From NCBI GenBank assembly GCA_051745265.1, contig JBNJDW010000002.1:1-32644 (forward strand): DNA of 32,644 nt, written 5' to 3'. The stretch comes from Pseudomonadota bacterium (lineage in GTDB: Bacteria > Pseudomonadota > Alphaproteobacteria > Micavibrionales > CSBR16-224). The position numbers were made by a program, and so were the translations under genes. The notes beneath the pieces were generated by a model. The model was not told the DNA's origin, made no database searches, and saw only the letters and a program-made list of their open reading frames with translations. This document shows, one piece after another, positions 20,239-27,518 of this stretch. Each line of letters opens with the position of its first letter. Position 1 is the first letter of the stretch.

Positions 20239-22257
20239 TTAGACCAAATCGCGCTTAATAACTTCGTCCCAGTTATCGGAAAAAATCCGGCGGTTTTTTT
20301 CATAGGCATCCAATGTGGCGTGAATATAGAAATTCTCGGCATCTGAGGTCAGTTCCGTGCGGGTGATAATCGAAACCTCCCAATCATCACGACGGAAAGC
20401 GCGTTCTGTATAACTGATGCCGCACAGGGAATTAAAATCACTGTCACGGAAACTGTATTGTTCTTCGGTACTGCGGCGCAGGGTCAGATTGATCTCTGGA
20501 ATATGAAAGCTGCCATTGTCATTCAGCACCTCAAGCGTTGATTTGTTTTCAACCAGATCACGGACAACACGCCAGCTGTGGCGTGGTTCGGTTTGTTGCT
20601 GGGTTACAAGTTCGGCTGCACCTTCGGGTGCGCCGAAAGGCCGTAACGCGGTTTCTTCATATGCCGGGCGTTCGGGGATATACAGCCGACTTCCGGATGT
20701 CCGCAAGGTCAGGCAGACCGGTTCCGGCGGCGCCCAGGCCAGCGGAAAATATGTGCTGGAGACCGCCAGTCTGAGTTTATGACCTGCCGGTATCCGCTGC
20801 GCCATACCGTTTAAGGGAACCCTGACGCGATAAAAACGGCCCGGTTCCAGCGGTTCAGGATTTTCATGGCTGTTACGGTGGGTCAGGTTCAGAAGGCCGT
20901 AGGTGATCCGCGTTGCCCGGCCATCGGGCATGATATCAGATAACCGCACCACCACCTGGGCAACGGGTTTATCGGCAGCGACCTCCAGTTCAACTACCGG
21001 GCTGCCGAGGATCTCCATTTCCTCACTTAATTGGTCTGTGTCAAAAATAAGCGCGCCGCCATCTTCTTCGCGCTGATCATGCGGTAAATCCGGTAAAGCA
21101 GAATAAGAGCACCATTTTCCGGCAAACATACCGACGGATAGGGGCGATTGGATGCTTTCCTCTATATCGATAATGACGTCTTCTTCTTCGGTCAAATGGC
21201 GATAGCCCAGACCAAAACAGCGTTCTTTTATATTTGACGACGGCCAGACGGTTTCGGTCACCCAGCGACCGGGACGATCCTGATAGGAGGTCGCCGGCGG
21301 CATCGGATCCTGCATCCAGACGCGCAACATCGGGTCCTGATCAATACCGGTATCATCGCCCTTCAACCAGTGGTCAAACCAGCGCAGAACTTCCTGTAGA
21401 AAGCCCGTAGCCGGACCCGGAATGCCCATATGCGGATAACGGTGCCCCCAGGGGCCGATAAGCCCCCGACGCGGCACTTCAAGATGTTCAAGCAGCCGGA
21501 AAATGGCATTGGTATAGCCGTCTGTCCAGCCGCCGACCGCCATGACCGGACATTTGATCTGACTATAATCTTCACAGACGGAGCCTGTTTTCCAAAAATC
21601 ATCACGGTGTTGGTGTTCCAGCCAGTTTTTCAGCCATAGTCCGCTGCCTTTCAGGCGGTCCAGCCACATTTCGCGCCAGCGTTCACCGATAAGCTCTGGA
21701 TCAGGCGGCAGGCTGTTAAAGGCAAACATGACCGTTGCTTCTGACAGGTGGTCCCCCAAAAGACAGCCGCCCATATAATGCATGTTATCTTCATACTGAT
21801 CATCAGACGCGCAGCAGGAAATAATCGCCTTGAGCGCCTCGGGCTGGCGGGCGGCCAGTTGAAGTGAATTAAACCCGCCCCAGGAAATGCCCATCATACC
21901 GAGATTACCGTTACACCAGTCCTGTTGCGCGATCCAGTTAATGACCGCAACACCATCGGATAATTCCTGTTCGGTATATTCATCGGTCAGAATGCCGTCA
22001 GATTCCCCGCTGCCGCGCATATCAACACGAATGCAGGCATAACCATGTCCGGCCAGATAAGGATGGTTTACAGCATCCCGGGCGCGGGTCATGTCCCGTT
22101 TGCGGTAGGGCAGATATTCCAGAATAGCGGGCACCGGATGTGTTTCGGCATCTTCCGGCAACCAGATTTTTGCACTGACCATAGCGCCATCGGGTAGCGG
22201 AATAAAAAAATGTTCTATGACGCGGGTCTTGTGCGGAAAAGTATCAATATGTTGCAC
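20239..22257 (-). CDS. CocE/NonD family alpha/beta hydrolase (peptidase S15, X-Pro dipeptidyl-peptidase-like)
   Basis: The ORF track starts at 22443, but that extension overlaps the upstream gene. GTG 22257 follows the SD AAGGAGGA and gives 672 aa. The N-terminal segment EYLPYRKRD and the nucleophile elbow GISWGG are present, with a large C-terminal beta-sandwich region typical of CocE/NonD. Confidence 0.85.
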   Translation of the reverse strand: MQHIDTFPHKTRVIEHFFIPLPDGAMVSAKIWLPEDAETHPVPAILEYLPYRKRDMTRARDAVNHPYLAGHGYACIRVDMRGSGESDGILTDEYTEQELSDGVAVINWIAQQDWCNGNLGMMGISWGGFNSLQLAARQPEALKAIISCCASDDQYEDNMHYMGGCLLGDHLSEATVMFAFNSLPPDPELIGERWREMWLDRLKGSGLWLKNWLEHQHRDDFWKTGSVCEDYSQIKCPVMAVGGWTDGYTNAIFRLLEHLEVPRRGLIGPWGHRYPHMGIPGPATGFLQEVLRWFDHWLKGDDTGIDQDPMLRVWMQDPMPPATSYQDRPGRWVTETVWPSSNIKERCFGLGYRHLTEEEDVIIDIEESIQSPLSVGMFAGKWCSYSALPDLPHDQREEDGGALIFDTDQLSEEMEILGSPVVELEVAADKPVAQVVVRLSDIMPDGRATRITYGLLNLTHRNSHENPEPLEPGRFYRVRVPLNGMAQRIPAGHKLRLAVSSTYFPLAWAPPEPVCLTLRTSGSRLYIPERPAYEETALRPFGAPEGAAELVTQQQTEPRHSWRVVRDLVENKSTLEVLNDNGSFHIPEINLTLRRSTEEQYSFRDSDFNSLCGISYTERAFRRDDWEVSIITRTELTSDAENFYIHATLDAYEKNRRIFSDNWDEVIKRDLV

Positions 22258-22267
22258 AAGTCCTCCT

Positions 22268-23560
22268 TTATATTTCCAGATGTCCGTTATCACTGAATTC
22301 AAGCGGGATACGCGGGACCAGCCGGCGATAACAATTTTGTAATTCCTCTGCGGACTCAGCGCCGATCCAGACATCACCGATATGGTAACAATAGACCGGT
22401 TGCTCTGGTAATTCTGATAACTGATCGCCCTGCTTAACGCCAAGCTCGATCAGGGCATCATTGAATTCTTTTGATAAGGCTTCAATTTCTTCGGCGCTGG
22501 GCATGTGACTAACCTTGGCATCACCATGTTTGCTGAGATAAAATTTAGCAGCAACCTTACAGGAACCGCTTTCATGCGGAAAATGCGGTTCATGGCCCAA
22601 AGCAACACTGACGGCAATTTCATGATTGGACATGCCGTCCACTTTGCGGAACATTTCACAATGTGATTGGGAAATCCGTGCGTTGACTTCAATAATCCAG
22701 AGTTTGTCGGCAGCGGCATTCCATTGGAATTCAACATTAAAGCAGCCGTTATCAAAGCCGACCTGCTCCAGAATTAACCGGCAGGCTTCATGGCTCTTTT
22801 TCTCCAGCCACGGGGGCAGATCAGCGGGGTATTTTAGCCCGGCCACCGTTTTGCCGTTATCCGTGAAAAACATGTCAAACAGGCCATGGATTTTCATCTG
22901 ACCATTCAGAACATAGCCTTCGGGGGCGAACTGGTTACCGCTTATGATGCCTTCGGCAATGGCGTGGTAGCCGCCGATGCCTTTGATTTCATCCGGCAGT
23001 TCAGCATGTTTCAGGCACGCATCAAAGGCCTGACCAAGTTCGCCGATATGTTCGCGCATTTGCTGTAATGCGTTGTCAAGCTGGCTACGGTTTTGAATGC
23101 GAAAGCCCAGTAATGAGGCAAATCCCTTCACCGGTTTTAACCAGAACGGAAAATCCAGACTGATTTTGTCAGCGGCTTTGGGGTCAAAGGGATCGACGGC
23201 TTCAAATTCAGGGATTAAATCCGGGACAACACGCTGTTGTTCCAACCGGGCCCAGTATTTATGCTCACATTTCAGCACTGATTCAAGCGATGGTGCCGGC
23301 AGGCCGTATTCCGCGGCCAGTACAGGGGCAAGACAGCTGGACGGAAAATCCCAGTGACAGACAAAGGCATCAGGTTTCAGGCCGGAGGTTTCAATTTGTT
23401 GCCGGGCACGTTGTAAAAGATCATCAAAGCCAAGATGTTGTTCAATAAGTTCTTCCGTGCTCAGCAGAGAAATAAAATTATAATCCTCGGCATGATCGAT
23501 GGTGTCAAGTTCATCCCGCTGCCAGTCAAGCATTCCAAATACATAAATATTCTTAGCCAT
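22268..23560 (-). CDS. ATP-grasp domain protein (putative carboxylate-amine ligase)
   Basis: 430 aa. The central region fits the ATP-grasp pattern (FPFWLKPVKGFASLLGFRI, AIAEGIISGNQF, FNVEFQW...LWIIEVNARISQ). Its TAA stop (22268-22270) lies inside the SD of the downstream hydrolase gene. Confidence 0.8.
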   Translation of the reverse strand: MAKNIYVFGMLDWQRDELDTIDHAEDYNFISLLSTEELIEQHLGFDDLLQRARQQIETSGLKPDAFVCHWDFPSSCLAPVLAAEYGLPAPSLESVLKCEHKYWARLEQQRVVPDLIPEFEAVDPFDPKAADKISLDFPFWLKPVKGFASLLGFRIQNRSQLDNALQQMREHIGELGQAFDACLKHAELPDEIKGIGGYHAIAEGIISGNQFAPEGYVLNGQMKIHGLFDMFFTDNGKTVAGLKYPADLPPWLEKKSHEACRLILEQVGFDNGCFNVEFQWNAAADKLWIIEVNARISQSHCEMFRKVDGMSNHEIAVSVALGHEPHFPHESGSCKVAAKFYLSKHGDAKVSHMPSAEEIEALSKEFNDALIELGVKQGDQLSELPEQPVYCYHIGDVWIGAESAEELQNCYRRLVPRIPLEFSDNGHLEI

Positions 23561-23683: not shown

Positions 23684-24064
23684 TCATTCCGTATTTTCCA
23701 ACACGTCTATGATTTCATCAACCGCAGTTTCCTGGCCATTAACGGAACTGGTATTATTTGCGGTTTGTTCACCGTTTGAATCCTGACCGACATCAATCGC
23801 ACCATTGGCGTTATTCATGATGATGCAGGTTGAATTGCCTTTGGCGGCGGTTTCATCGCCGGCACCGCAAACAATGGTATCGGCACTGACGGATCCGGGG
23901 CCGCCGTTGTTAGAGGGTTGCTGTTCAGCCTGACGCATGAGCGAGGCAATAGAGGCCCGGTTCTGCGGGGTAAAGCCCCAGGGTTTGGCATTCATTTGTG
24001 CCTGCGTTTCGGCAACAGGGGTGAATAGAAAAGCAGCGGATAGAAAAGCAATTGAATATTTCAT
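23684..24064 (-). CDS. Hypothetical secreted protein (126 aa), last gene of the csgG-like operon
   Basis: The signal peptide is MKYSIAFLSAAFLFTPVAETQA. The mature N-terminus reads QMNAKPWGF. The body is rich in Asn/Gly/Thr/Asp and has two Cys. SD AAGGAGA lies 6 nt upstream of the ATG. Confidence 0.6.
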   Translation of the reverse strand: MKYSIAFLSAAFLFTPVAETQAQMNAKPWGFTPQNRASIASLMRQAEQQPSNNGGPGSVSADTIVCGAGDETAAKGNSTCIIMNNANGAIDVGQDSNGEQTANNTSSVNGQETAVDEIIDVLENTE

Positions 24065-24077
24065 GATAATTCTCCTT

Positions 24078-24119
24078 ATAAAAAGAAAGGGGAGAAGAAG
24101 CCTTGGCCGCTTCTCCCGC
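24078..24119 (-). terminator. Terminator/attenuator-like hairpin between the 341-aa and 126-aa genes
   Basis: On the minus strand GGGAGAAG(C) pairs with (G)CTTCTCCC, with one bulge. TTTCTTTTTAT follows immediately, and then the SD of the 126-aa gene. Confidence 0.5.
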
Positions 24120-24142: not shown

Positions 24143-25168
24143 TTAGTCCAGTTCTGGTCCATTCAGTGTCATGCTAAGGTTATTGCCGATAGCTGTTGCG
24201 GCAGAGTTAACCAATGGTCCGTCAACAACGCCCAGATTATCATAGTTATTAACGGTGATATCTGAAACGGCTGACGTCGCTGTGACATCTGCATAAGAGG
24301 CCTGTGTGACATCAGCGATCGCGAAGGTATCTGCATCCGTCGCAGGATTCAGCGTGATATCCATGTTATTGGCAACGCTGGTCGCGGTGCTGTCAACACT
24401 GGCATTCAGGATATCATTAACTGTTGATGTCGCTGTTACCTGTGCTGGTTCCACCATGCCTTGAAGGCCGCCGGACAGCAGAGAGGCCATCATGTCAATG
24501 TTAAGGTTGCCACCTTCTTCATCAGACGGGATATCACCGATGTCACCGGTTTCAGCATCCTCTGCGAAGCCGCCAAAGGTGAATTGTCCGTCATGCAGTT
24601 GAAGCGCTGCTGCGGTTTCAAGCTGCTGGTTGTTGCCAACGGCAGTTGCGGCAGATTCAACGGCGGGCAGGTCAACACCATCCAGGGTGCCGCCGGGTAC
24701 GAACTCAACATCGCCAAAAACATCAAAGTTGGCGGTCATTTCATTGCCTGTTTCATCAACCGTACCACCTGTCATTTCAGCGCTCAGTTGTTCGCCTTCA
24801 TTTGGTCCGGCAGGACTAATGACATCAATACCGTCACCATTCTCATAATCAGAGCTGAAGGTAAAACTTTCATCAATAGTCACAAAGCCATTTTCATCGG
24901 CTTCACCCGGTGCATTGTTATCAATGCCGGTGACAGATGATGTGGCAATAACATCACCAACCTGAAGCTGGGTCTTTTCCATGACGATCAGGCCGGCAGG
25001 AACAAGTTCCAGATTGAGATCAAGATTGGTATTGAGGTCACCATCAACATCCTGATTCCAGTCCCAGTTCACATTCTCAAAGGCCTGAGCCGGGCTGGTA
25101 GAAACACCGAGTGCAAGCGCTGCCACGGCAACGGTCGCAAACAGTTTAGTCGTCTTTAGTTTTTTCAT
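24143..25168 (-). CDS. Secreted, extremely acidic repeat protein (candidate CsgG-dependent substrate)
   Basis: 341 aa. The signal peptide KLFATVAVAALALGVSTSPAQA is cleaved after AQA. The mature chain has one Lys, no Arg and many Asp/Glu. Two motifs each occur three times (V-x-ATS-x-V-x-x-I and S-x-AT-[AS]-[VI]-[GA]-NN-x-x-[LIM]-[ET]-L). SD AAGGAGA lies 8 nt upstream of the ATG. The gene overlaps the csgG-like gene by 23 nt. Confidence 0.75.
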   Translation of the reverse strand: MKKLKTTKLFATVAVAALALGVSTSPAQAFENVNWDWNQDVDGDLNTNLDLNLELVPAGLIVMEKTQLQVGDVIATSSVTGIDNNAPGEADENGFVTIDESFTFSSDYENGDGIDVISPAGPNEGEQLSAEMTGGTVDETGNEMTANFDVFGDVEFVPGGTLDGVDLPAVESAATAVGNNQQLETAAALQLHDGQFTFGGFAEDAETGDIGDIPSDEEGGNLNIDMMASLLSGGLQGMVEPAQVTATSTVNDILNASVDSTATSVANNMDITLNPATDADTFAIADVTQASYADVTATSAVSDITVNNYDNLGVVDGPLVNSAATAIGNNLSMTLNGPELD

Positions 25169-26021
25169 GAGATTTTTCTCCTTGTTTAGATTGTAGCTGC
25201 GATAAATAATTGGACATATGATCGTTTTTCACGAGGTCGCAGCTGTTGGCCTCGGGAAGTCCAAGGAATTCCGTCATGATTTGGTAAACTGCCATTTCCA
25301 CGACGGATCTAACGCCAAGCTGAAGCGGTTCATTTTGAATCGCGCCGGCGTTAAATTCGACCAGTGTATCTCCGAAAAAGCGGAAGACATTGGCCTCGAC
25401 CTCATGGCCGAAAATCTGTTTTTGTAAGCTTGAAACATGCTTGATCGCAAAGTTCCGGGAATCAATAACCCGAAGATCAAGGGCAACATTTATAATGACA
25501 GTTCGGGCGCCGCCGCCGATCCCTTTGACAAAAAGCTGGCTGCCGCCGCTGACGATATTGTGATTAAGCTCGGTCAGGGCCCCGACAACGATAAAATCGC
25601 TGGCCGGAAGCTTACCGTAATCCGCAATACTCCGGTTGAGACGGTTTTGTTCAGCCAGTTTGACTTCGGCCAACGGAATACGCAGATCAAGACGCTCGAC
25701 CATATGAACCTTATCAGTTTTGGAGAGCGCACTGATGACCATTTCGGACACCCCTTGTGTCAGGGCATGACCGTTTTCATCAAAGTTAATCTGCCCCGTT
25801 TTGTCCGAGACTTCACCGACAGAAAAGACGGGAAGGTTATTGGCAGGAATTTCTCCAAGACTATCAAGGCATTGACTGTAAGGTGTATCGTTGTTGGTCA
25901 CCGCAAAGGAATATGATGGTTCCACCCCTGTTATGGGATGAGAGTTCACCGAAGTACATCCGGTCAAAGTCAAGACGCCGAGAAACAGCGATAGATATTT
26001 TAATGGCTTTGAATTAGGCAC
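25146..26021 (-). CDS. csgG: CsgG/HfaB family outer-membrane lipoprotein (type VIII secretion channel component)
   Basis: 291 aa with a GTG start after the SD AAGGAAG. The lipobox is LTLTGC. Blocks are collinear with E. coli CsgG as I recall it: FSVGEVSDKTGQ vs VYNIQDETGQ, IVSGGSQLFVKGIGGGAR...VALDLRVID vs VKSGGVGARYFGIGAD...IAVNLRVVN, EVEANVFRF vs EVQAGVFRF, and NEPLQLGVRSVVEMAVYQI vs NEPVMLCLMSAIETGVIFL. Confidence 0.88.
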   Translation of the reverse strand: MPNSKPLKYLSLFLGVLTLTGCTSVNSHPITGVEPSYSFAVTNNDTPYSQCLDSLGEIPANNLPVFSVGEVSDKTGQINFDENGHALTQGVSEMVISALSKTDKVHMVERLDLRIPLAEVKLAEQNRLNRSIADYGKLPASDFIVVGALTELNHNIVSGGSQLFVKGIGGGARTVIINVALDLRVIDSRNFAIKHVSSLQKQIFGHEVEANVFRFFGDTLVEFNAGAIQNEPLQLGVRSVVEMAVYQIMTEFLGLPEANSCDLVKNDHMSNYLSQLQSKQGEKSHEKTKDD

Positions 26022-26302: not shown

Positions 26303-26833
26303 ATGAAAAAGAGATCAAAACGATTATCCGTGATGCTGTACGCAGCGGCATTTCTGATTATATCCAGTACGGCCTTTACACAGATGAACAATGAACCCTA
26401 CAGCTTTAACAATGCACCGGGTGCCGGTATGAGTGTTGGTGGCAAACAGGCTATTCTGAACGAAAAAATATTCGGTCAAACACCGGATAATCTGGTGCGT
26501 GGCCCGTCCGGCCAATTGCTGGACGTGACCGAAGGGCCCGGTCATTCCGCGATCGTCAGTTATCCGGGCAATGGTGGGTTTATTCCGGGATTCAAAGGCG
26601 CTGATTTTCGCGGCGGAAATGCCGGTATGGCGGCAGGGGCTTTTAATTCCTTTTTCACGCCGTCTTATAATCGTACATCTTACGCCGCCTATTCAGCGCA
26701 GGCGTATTCACAGACAGGTCATGTGGTCAGTTCCTGGACATCGCGGGCGGTGAATGGCCCTGCGGCTTTTACGGGTACGAATTCTATAGAAAGCTGGACG
26801 GGGATGGTGCATTCCCTGCCAGATAATCCTTAA
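26303..26833 (+). CDS. Hypothetical exported low-complexity protein (176 aa)
   Basis: SD AAGGAGG lies 7 nt upstream of the ATG. The signal peptide is KRLSVMLYAAAFLIISSTAFT. The mature N-terminus reads QMNNEPYSF. The central region is rich in Gly/Ala/Ser/Asn and aromatics (GNGGFIPGFKGADFRGGNAGMAAGAFNSFFTPSYNRTSYAAYSAQAYSQ). Confidence 0.65.
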   Translation: MKKRSKRLSVMLYAAAFLIISSTAFTQMNNEPYSFNNAPGAGMSVGGKQAILNEKIFGQTPDNLVRGPSGQLLDVTEGPGHSAIVSYPGNGGFIPGFKGADFRGGNAGMAAGAFNSFFTPSYNRTSYAAYSAQAYSQTGHVVSSWTSRAVNGPAAFTGTNSIESWTGMVHSLPDNP

Positions 26834-26852: not shown

Positions 26853-27518
26853 TTATACGATTTTTAAGTCTGGAAGCTGTTCATCTTCATAGCCGTTATT
26901 CAAAGCCCAGATTGCAATCTGGGTCCGGTTGGAAACACCAAGCTGTTTAAGGATCTTCTTAATATGAACCTTGACCGTCGCTTCGGCGATATCAAGATCA
27001 TTGGCGATCATTTTATTGGACGCCCCGCTGACAAGCTTTTTGATGATTTCCTGTTCCCGCATGGAAAACCCCTGTACCGACACCGGGGTGGGATTATTAA
27101 GGCCGATAGTGTAACGGGTCAGCTCTGTTGCAAAACAGCCCGGCAAAACTTTTTCGCCAAGAAGGATTAACTGTAATGATTTTTTCAAGGCAGAGGGCGG
27201 CGTGTCATTCATCAGATATCCATCTGTACCGGCCGCAAAAGCCGCGCAGATTGTCTCCAGCCTTGAACACCCGGCCAAGGTCACAATGTAGCTTTGCGGG
27301 AACGTGTCTTTGACAGTTTTAATCGTCGTTTCCGGCTTGGGTGTATCGGAGATTTCACCAATGATGAATAAGGTGCAGGATTGATGTTCAACGGCTGGGT
27401 GGAGGTCTTCTAAACTTTTAAAGTCACCAATGATTTGATAGCCTTCTTCGTCTAAAAGGGCTTTTAATCCTTCTTTGGTCAGGGCGTTCTTCTCCAATAT
27501 GCAAACTGTGTTTGTCAT
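26853..27518 (-). CDS. LuxR/FixJ-type transcriptional regulator with degenerate receiver domain (CsgD-like architecture)
   Basis: 221 aa. The C-terminal LuxR HTH reads FSMREQEIIKKLVSGASNKMIANDLDIAEATVKVHIKKILKQLGVSNRTQIA. The N-terminal REC-like fold has substitutions at the acidic pair (E-K for D-D), the phospho-acceptor (LFIIGE for LxxxD) and the conserved Lys (N). Confidence 0.85.
   Translation of the reverse strand: MTNTVCILEKNALTKEGLKALLDEEGYQIIGDFKSLEDLHPAVEHQSCTLFIIGEISDTPKPETTIKTVKDTFPQSYIVTLAGCSRLETICAAFAAGTDGYLMNDTPPSALKKSLQLILLGEKVLPGCFATELTRYTIGLNNPTPVSVQGFSMREQEIIKKLVSGASNKMIANDLDIAEATVKVHIKKILKQLGVSNRTQIAIWALNNGYEDEQLPDLKIV

Follow-up and report, generated by a model that had tools for sequence, protein, structure and literature searches.

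The window analyzed here, i.e., the whole stretch of 32,644 nucleotides (nt) of contig JBNJDW010000002.1 (positions 1 to 32,644, assembly GCA_051745265.1), originated from an alphaproteobacterium of the Micavibrionales. One of its genes encodes a secreted protein of 341 amino acids (aa) with an extreme excess of acidic residues, placed directly after a gene of the CsgG/HfaB channel family. This protein is probably the main exported substrate of the adjoining HfaB-type (type VIII-like) channel and a remote, shortened, and hyperacidic relative of HfaD, which anchors the holdfast in Caulobacter crescentus and Hirschia baltica. Because of the constant place of the gene after the HfaB/CsgG channel gene and the distant kinship to HfaD, a surface-exposed cargo is the most likely role.

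Holdfast-anchor proteins are regarded as a specialty of Caulobacterales. HfaA and HfaD are HfaB-dependent, surface-located multimers resistant to sodium dodecyl sulfate (SDS) (bioRxiv 10.1101/2022.07.20.500906; PMC6707917), and HfaA was cited as restricted to Caulobacterales (HfaE preprint 10.1101/2022.07.20.500906). In the literature, no paper was found on the 341-aa family or on an Hfa-like system outside Caulobacterales. The initial annotation, made from the DNA letters alone, treated the protein as an unusual candidate cargo. Since it appears to be a remote HfaD relative in the position of hfaD after hfaB, it is less of an orphan than the initial annotation supposed.

Composition and repeat architecture

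The open reading frame (ORF) of the 341-aa protein starts with an ATG preceded at 10 nt by AAGGAG. The signal peptide ends in an A-x-A site followed by phenylalanine, of which A27, A29, and F30 are invariant in an alignment of 118 sequences. The mature chain (aa 30-341) contains 34 Asp and 21 Glu, i.e., 55 acidic residues. K65 is the only Lys, H192 is the only His, and Arg does not occur. With a net charge of approximately -54 and an isoelectric point of approximately 4.05, the secreted polyanionic chain read in the initial annotation was confirmed. Acidity, poverty in Lys and Arg, and lack of Cys are traits of the whole family, with two Cys in only 1 of 40 aligned members. The net charge of aligned members ranged from -23 to -54, and the protein of the window is the most extreme. 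The K65 column is basic in 79% of the members.

In the Pfam scan, only Cbm74 was found, below threshold (E 0.032, 14.5 bits against a cut-off of 27), and this assignment was dismissed as noise. A sequence search of PDB gave no matches at E ≤ 10.

Motif A is located at aa 72-82, 244-253, and 295-304 and motif B at aa 171-185, 259-273, and 321-335, as the initial annotation had placed them, and its nucleotide ranges for motif B translate to the proper residues. The spacing from A to B is irregular, as described before, i.e., 88, 5, and 16 aa. The motif columns are invariant or at least 90% conserved in 118 homologs, and likewise in a 40-member alignment. The conserved positions of motif A are D72, A75, S77, and V79 in the first copy, A246, S248, and V250 in the second, and A297, S299, and V301 in the third. 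Those of motif B are S172, A174, T175, A176, V177, N179, and N180 (B1), A262, T263, A264, N267, and N268 (B2), and S322, A324, T325, A326, G328, N329, and N330 (B3). In the profile self-comparison of the family, off-diagonal alignments reached a probability of 97% (P 5e-11 and 1e-10). Because the motifs are conserved across the homologs and recur as internal repeats in the self-comparison, they are more than chance.

The initial annotation considered A and B to be two alternating motifs with three copies each. The three copies stand, but the motifs are not separate: judged from the alignments, A and B are two halves of a single bipartite HfaD-type unit that includes one invariant Gln. The unit consists of the invariant Gln, x3-[A/G]-D-V-x-A-T-S-x-V (A), and then S-x-A-T-A-[VI]-G-N-N-x-S-[IV] (B). 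The conserved Gln ladder had been reported as missing; instead, one invariant Gln is present per unit (Q67, Q195, and Q289). Units 1 and 2 are each broken by a poorly conserved insert (aa 86-165 and aa 199-239).

Similarity to HfaD and HfaA

With NF037936, the curated model of HfaD, bona fide Hfa loci were located in Caulobacterales genomes, and their genes were read directly. In profile-profile comparison by hhalign, the 341-aa family (117 sequences) was aligned to HfaD (21 sequences) over 134 columns, from B1 to A3, with a probability of 77.7% (P 1.9e-5). The C-termini (265-345 to HfaD 325-393) were aligned with a probability of 56.9% (P 1.1e-4), a further alignment reached 21.7%, and an alternative alignment of 60-79 to 12-31 gave P 0.012. 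The reversed control gave P 0.24. As a scale, the known partners HfaA and HfaD gave 24.5% (P 8e-4) when compared with each other. The protein encoded next downstream, of 126 aa, was compared with HfaA and showed a probability of 83% (P 8.8e-6), versus P 0.31 in the reversed control.

The 341-aa protein and HfaD share several features. Both are secreted, acidic, and Lys-poor, and their sizes are similar (341 versus approximately 374 aa); many HfaD proteins are nearly Lys-free with a net charge of approximately -20 to -29. Both genes lie immediately after, and overlap, an hfaB-type channel gene, as seen in the bona fide loci. Both proteins are built of repeated pairs of Q-x-[NS]-x-x-x-V-x-A-x-[ST] and A-x-A-x-G-N, and the G-N of insert 2 pairs with the A-x-G-N motif of HfaD in the hhalign alignment. 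The HfaD start, V-L-N-x-Q-x-Q-x-G-D-V-x-A, parallels E-K-x-Q-x-x-I-G-D-V-T-A of the 341-aa family. At the C-terminus, the shared motif is A-[IV]-G-N-[NSA]-[AL]-[TS], and HfaD itself ends in A-[IV]-G-N-[SA]-A-T-F. However, HfaD has approximately eight units whereas the 341-aa protein has three, and the latter adds two large non-repetitive acidic inserts and an N-terminal segment with W-x-W. HfaD contains 2-6 Cys, while the 341-aa protein has none and its charge density is approximately two to three times higher. The carriers of the 341-aa family are also different, i.e., alphaproteobacteria other than Caulobacterales.

With HfaA (NF037934 / PF27294), a small holdfast anchor subunit of curlin-like type, the protein shares the motif A-T-A-[IV]-G-N-N-L-[NS]-[VM], which equals motif B. 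The sequence is S-A-A-T-A-I-G-N-N-L-S-M in B3 and G-A-T-A-I-G-N-N-L-N-V in the HfaA of locus L007. However, HfaA is a small protein of approximately 115-150 aa, and the 341-aa protein is three times longer and has multiple units. The better counterpart of HfaA in the cassette is the 126-aa protein. It is likely a remote HfaA homolog, although neither NF037934 nor any other curated model detected it.

When the profile-profile comparison and the gene position are taken together, we read the cassette as an Hfa-like module in the order hfaB-like, hfaD-like (the 341-aa gene), and hfaA-like. The 341-aa family is a remote HfaD relative with moderate confidence.

Several points weigh against this reading. 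The hhalign probability to HfaD is moderate, against a level of >95% usually taken as proof, and it depends on repeated motifs that are short and occur in proteins of biased composition. With smaller alignments of the family (40 sequences) and HfaD (18 sequences), it was only 33% (P 4.6e-4). The model NF037936 (cut-off 100 bits) gave no match at E ≤ 10 in the whole source genome and none at E ≤ 1 for the 341-aa protein and six homologs, and a Caulobacter control genome scored above the cut-off. The HfaA model NF037934 (cut-off 50 bits) matched the 341-aa protein and its homologs at just 12-15 bits; in the 341-aa protein, the matches of 12.1 bits (E 0.19) and 15.3 bits (E 0.026) covered aa 294-337 only. 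The gene order of channel, D-like, and A-like is different from hfaA-hfaB-hfaD. Finally, Poly_export (PF02563, Wza/HfsD-type) was absent and a PgaC-like synthase of glycosyltransferase family 2 (GT2) was not found at E ≤ 1e-10 in the source assembly, which at 1.75 Mb is 89% complete and so does not prove absence. A polysaccharide to anchor is therefore not evident there. In the other carrier genomes, 12 of 12 had Wza-type genes (specificity unassigned) and PgaC-like GT2 matches, with no true PgaC above cut-off. The initial annotation would have given way to a confident placement in an already characterized family. That case is borderline, as the placement with HfaD is moderate (hhalign probability 78%).

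Channel and gene order

The channel protein matched Pfam CsgG at 7.2e-28. Among the NCBIfam models, it scored 168 bits with HfaB (1.9e-49; the equivalog cut-off of 300 was not reached) versus 57 bits with CsgG. In the channel tree, the cassette channels clustered with bona fide HfaB, and E. coli CsgG was a very distant outgroup. By these scores and the tree, the adjoining channel is closer to the holdfast-anchor HfaB than to the curli CsgG. The channel family named in the initial annotation was correct, and its type is changed to HfaB-like. It is the sole CsgG-family gene of the source assembly.

The synteny survey covered three metagenomic contexts, 11 species genomes, and 79 named genome loci. 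Of the 75 loci that could be evaluated, 74 had the channel gene directly upstream of the member of the 341-aa family, which supports the earlier proposal that the product of the 341-aa gene is a candidate cargo of this channel. A gene for a small HfaA-like secreted protein followed directly downstream in 67 of 78 loci. Wherever checked, the genes for the channel and the 341-aa protein overlapped or abutted, i.e., by 23 nt here at the 3' end of the channel gene, 11 nt in locus L002, and 4 nt in L004, and this overlap suggests translational coupling. The features expected of a CsgG/HfaB-dependent substrate were found, i.e., a Sec signal, no other anchoring signal, and linkage in the operon, and from these we infer the translocation itself.

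Acinetobacter and Neisseria also have a gene of the CsgG/HfaB family within a conserved cluster of few genes, and this cluster was linked to the retention of the surface polysaccharide poly-N-acetylglucosamine (PNAG) (bioRxiv 10.1101/2021.05.19.444899). However, the partners in that cluster are two lipoproteins (GNA1162-like), not repeat proteins with signal peptides, and their sequence is unrelated to the 341-aa family.

Predicted structure and comparison with curli

The AlphaFold2 model, built with 118 sequences, had a mean predicted local distance difference test score (pLDDT) of 81.6 and a predicted template modeling score of 0.67, with 90-98 pLDDT in the repeat regions. The model consists of a series of long beta-hairpins with approximately 14 strands of 11-17 residues, and one helix (aa 222-235). 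Searching two models against PDB by Foldseek gave nothing at E ≤ 0.001. The top match of the first model was the FapC amyloid (E 0.03, template modeling (TM) score 0.08-0.14), and the better model retrieved hot-dog thioesterases (E 0.16-1, TM ≤ 0.25) and no PDB chain at E < 0.1; none of these matches was significant. The predicted fold is confident but without a solved counterpart in PDB. As modeled, it is neither a curli-type solenoid nor a beta-helix with an Asn ladder, and the long hairpins give no support to the beta-helix with Asn ladders proposed in the initial annotation.

The neighborhood resembles curli in some respects. In both systems, a CsgG-family lipoprotein channel, a Sec-dependent repeat cargo, a LuxR-type regulator, and divergent transcription units are present, and Gln, Asn, Gly, and Ala are abundant in the repeats. 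The 341-aa protein could thus be a subunit of a curli-type functional amyloid, i.e., a CsgA analog that leaves through a CsgG channel and forms beta-solenoid fibers for which no polysaccharide is needed and which the 126-aa protein would nucleate. Besides the adjoining channel and the nearby CsgD-like regulator, the abundance of G-N-N, A-T, and Gln in the motifs, where each unit has one invariant Gln, the lack of detectable polysaccharide export genes in the source genome, and the non-significant FapC match of the first model are in favor of such a fiber.

However, the curlin repeat S-x5-Q-x-G-x-G-N-x-A-x3-Q was undetectable in the family by profile. The Pfam scan gave no Curlin_rpt (PF07012) match at E ≤ 1, and hhalign against E. 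coli CsgA/CsgB gave P 0.32. With P 0.54 for CsgF, the relationships to curlin and to CsgF were both rejected (P 0.3-0.5). The protein is not a curlin, and motif B, in which the initial annotation saw a faint curlin flavor, equals A-T-A-[VI]-G-N of HfaA and HfaD. The modeled strands form long hairpins rather than rungs of approximately 22 residues, and the better model retrieved no curli or Fap structure. There are just three units, with long acidic stretches of non-repetitive sequence between them. Unless it is neutralized, the net charge of -54 would work against in-register stacking. The channel is much nearer to HfaB, and relatives of CsgE, CsgF, and CsgC were absent. A curli-type amyloid subunit is thus improbable.

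The all-beta model with its long strands also raises the question of a structural partner of the channel. In that case, the 341-aa protein would either form a beta-barrel in the outer membrane or gate the HfaB-like pore as a CsgE-/CsgF-like cap or adaptor, in the periplasm or outside the cell, and the true cargo would be the 126-aa protein or the divergently encoded 176-aa protein. The translational coupling with the channel gene suggests a fixed stoichiometry, and the conserved disordered W-x-W segment at the N-terminus could dock into the pore. The barrel form was ruled out by C-terminus, strand polarity, and charge. The chain ends in L-N-G-P-E-L-D with no C-terminal aromatic beta-signal, and family members differ in their C-termini. 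Both faces of the strands consist of polar or small residues (V/A/S versus T/N/D), so the strands are not lipid-facing. A protein of 341 aa with such a net charge is unlike CsgE or CsgF, and its similarity is to HfaD, which is a surface-located cargo (PMC6707917). A role as channel partner is therefore highly improbable.

Proposed export and anchoring

As an HfaD-like cargo, the 341-aa protein would be exported by Sec, and the unfolded chain would then be handed through the HfaB-like channel, by analogy with HfaA and HfaD. Once outside, the half-units A and B would pair as long beta-hairpins at the cell surface. Together with the HfaA-like partner, they may form stable and possibly SDS-resistant oligomers on the outer leaflet, as the Caulobacterales anchors do. 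More speculatively, the scarce Lys and Arg and the two acidic inserts could prevent aggregation of the chain in the periplasm and keep it in solution. Outside, and equally speculatively, the polyanionic surface may bind a cationic partner, which would lead to anchoring of a matrix or to direct adhesion. Divalent cations are one candidate for this partner, and an amino-sugar polysaccharide that has been partly deacetylated is another. Cells that lose the holdfast deacetylase HfsH show the same shedding phenotype as anchor mutants (PMC8449245), which is consistent with a charge-based link.

The charge could also be the main function. The protein would then be mainly a divalent-cation-binding polyanionic coat, S-layer-like or bridged by Ca2+/Mg2+ and bound to lipopolysaccharide, in which the repeats are a mere scaffold without an anchor or adhesin role. 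The 55 acidic versus 1 basic residue, the acidity conserved across the family, the marine or groundwater origin of many carriers, and the limited similarity to S-layer proteins described for HfaD (PMC6707917) agree with this. However, RTX-type calcium binding was rejected for want of a Pfam match, as neither RTX/HemolysinCabind nor, the dismissed Cbm74 aside, any other family was hit at E ≤ 1. The acid density is highest (22-25%) in the two inserts and the N-terminal segment (aa 30-57), and only eight acidic columns of the family alignment are conserved at ≥80%. Because the acid is concentrated in the inserts, where conservation is lowest, defined binding sites are less likely. A coat of this kind is quite improbable as the main role, and cation binding would be compatible with an exported HfaD-like protein.

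With the HfaD-like cargo as its main subunit, the cassette would be an Hfa-type, type VIII-like anchor or fiber system outside Caulobacterales with a rearranged operon, a function suggested by gene content and homology. It is rather unlikely that the five-part cassette of channel, 341-aa protein, HfaA-like protein, 176-aa protein, and CsgD-like regulator constitutes a third, holdfast-independent branch of CsgG/HfaB-dependent surface assembly, separate from curli as well as from the anchor of Caulobacterales. In that case, the main subunit, with the long-hairpin fold that has no solved counterpart, would itself be a polyanionic, cation-bridged adhesin or fiber, and the system could serve attachment to surfaces or prey in alphaproteobacteria with small genomes. 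Micavibrio is an epibiotic predator.

Distribution of the family

A word-indexed search gave >242 homologs. The profile search of 1.84 billion representatives gave 301 clusters (50% identity) at E ≤ 1e-3 and 267 at E ≤ 1e-10, and from these two counts the family is compact and sharply bounded. Members, wherever named, were called hypothetical protein, and the accession Pfam PF27277 was precomputed for a few homologs. The family was found in 13 of 401 sampled alphaproteobacterial species (approximately 3%), belonging to several families. It was present in none of the seven genomes with HfaD matches, and no Caulobacterales carrier was found in the sample. The carriers among metagenome-assembled genomes were labeled Micavibrio (many), Rhodospirillales, Parvibaculum, Ferrovibrio, Neomegalonema, and Micropepsaceae/Rhizomicrobium. 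Cultured carriers were Oceanibaculum pacificum MCCC 1A02656, Pelagibius litoralis DSM 21314, and Inquilinus sp. CAU 1745.

The full cassette, of alphaproteobacterial type, was also seen on contigs labeled uncultured Bifidobacterium, Flavobacteriaceae, or Mycobacteriaceae (L084, L099, L100, L104, L117, L118, and L122). Such labels seem to result from errors in binning or naming and not to give the real hosts.

The family varies in copy number and length. One alphaproteobacterial genome encodes five full-length paralogs (G424:C11:458539-468201, 318056-319111), four of them within 10 kb. Length variants were seen at G039:C1:941457-943190 and at loci of G079, G247, and G411 (L041, L045, and L046). 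One is a 598-aa open frame with a large insertion between the conserved N- and C-terminal parts, and others are short forms of 239-283 aa that contain the first hairpin and the last unit only. All length variants still adjoin the channel gene.

A compact HfaB / HfaD-like / HfaA-like module with five conserved genes thus exists in many alphaproteobacteria outside the order of the known anchors, and approximately 300 hypothetical protein clusters gain a plausible name. Because it is short, with three units, a confidently modeled core, and extreme charge, the 341-aa protein is a simpler object of study than HfaD for the fold, for the passage through a CsgG-type pore, and for whether anchoring is electrostatic. 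As three cultured strains carry the cassette, the question is directly testable.

Other features of the cassette and its surroundings

The features of the locus are collected in Table 1.

Table 1. Positions of the cassette genes and of the regions of the 341-aa protein in the window.
Feature	Position	Strand	Remarks
Gene for the 341-aa hyperacidic three-unit HfaD-like secreted protein	24143..25168	-	ORF, composition, homologs, hhalign to HfaD
Sec signal peptide, aa 1-29, cleavage after A-Q-A	25082..25168	-	K-rich n-region, hydrophobic core
Conserved mature N-terminus, aa 30-57 (F-[DE]-x-V-x-W-x-W-N), 25% acidic	24998..25081	-	modeled as disordered, pLDDT ~40
Unit 1, first half: beta-hairpin aa 58-85 with E64-K65, Q67, G71-D72, motif A1 (72-82)	24914..24997	-	
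Variable acidic insert 1, aa 86-165, 19 D/E, K/R = 0	24674..24913	-	
Motif B1 (aa 171-185) and L-H-D-G-Q-F with invariant Q195	24575..24673	-	pLDDT 92-96
Variable acidic insert 2, aa 199-239	24452..24574	-	degenerate G-N-x-H motif (N221), only helix (aa 222-235)
Motifs A2 (aa 244-253) and B2 (aa 259-273), modeled as a single long beta-hairpin	24344..24451	-	
Invariant D286 and Q289, motif A3 (aa 295-304)	24248..24343	-	
Motif B3 (aa 321-335), C-terminus, stop codon	24143..24247	-	faint HfaA-model match; aligns with HfaD C-terminal motif
HfaB-like (CsgG-family) outer-membrane lipoprotein channel, 291 aa, lipobox L-T-G-C	25146..26021	-	
HfaA-like small secreted protein, 126 aa	23684..24064	-	family alignment, hhalign vs HfaA
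Terminator-like hairpin, 9 pairs, and T-run	24093..24117	-	pattern match only
Divergent 176-aa secreted protein of the cassette	26303..26833	+	relatives ≤5 kb away in 48/79 loci
LuxR/GerE-type (CsgD-like) regulator of the cassette	26853..27518	-	relatives ≤5 kb away in 70/79 loci

In the N-terminal segment of the 341-aa protein, F30, W35, and W37 are invariant in the 118 sequences, and the segment is a candidate for export or docking. Insert 1 has a mean column conservation of 0.39 and an acid fraction of 0.24, and it was modeled as more hairpins with pLDDT 71-88. The strands of the A2/B2 hairpin (242-254 and 257-273) reached pLDDT 97-98.

The terminator-like hairpin lies between the 341-aa gene and the ribosome-binding site of the 126-aa gene, and it could make the small partner less strongly expressed than the large one. 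The core motif of the 126-aa protein is A-x-G-N-S-T-C-I-I-x-N-N-x-x-G-x-I-x-x-G-Q-D-x-x-G-x-Q, with C66 and C80 invariant. The mature N-termini of the 126-aa protein (23972-24000, reverse strand) and the 176-aa protein (26378-26410, forward strand) both read Q-M-N-x-x-P-[WY]-x-F, and W29 and F31 are invariant in the 126-aa family. Their likeness to CsgF was not significant (P ~0.5). Some HfaA N-termini resemble the same pattern, i.e., M-N-T-P-Y-G-F (L009) and F-Q-R-P-W-G (L008).

The regulator matched GerE at 5.8e-18, and its C-terminal half matched the CsgD model at 2.9e-17. The receiver domain scored 16.8 bits, under the Pfam cut-off, and the protein may act as a CsgD-like regulator without phosphorylation.

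Directly downstream of the cassette (20239-23560, reverse strand), an ATP-grasp enzyme gene and an overlapping gene for an S15 (X-Pro dipeptidyl-peptidase/CocE-NonD) hydrolase are located. In three other contexts, these genes were outside the conserved cassette, and no polysaccharide-pathway gene was conserved beside the cassette in three metagenomic contexts. The 176-aa protein had no Pfam or NCBIfam match. Its C-terminal [ES]-W-[TV]-G-[MF]-V was kept even in very divergent versions (L004 and L005).

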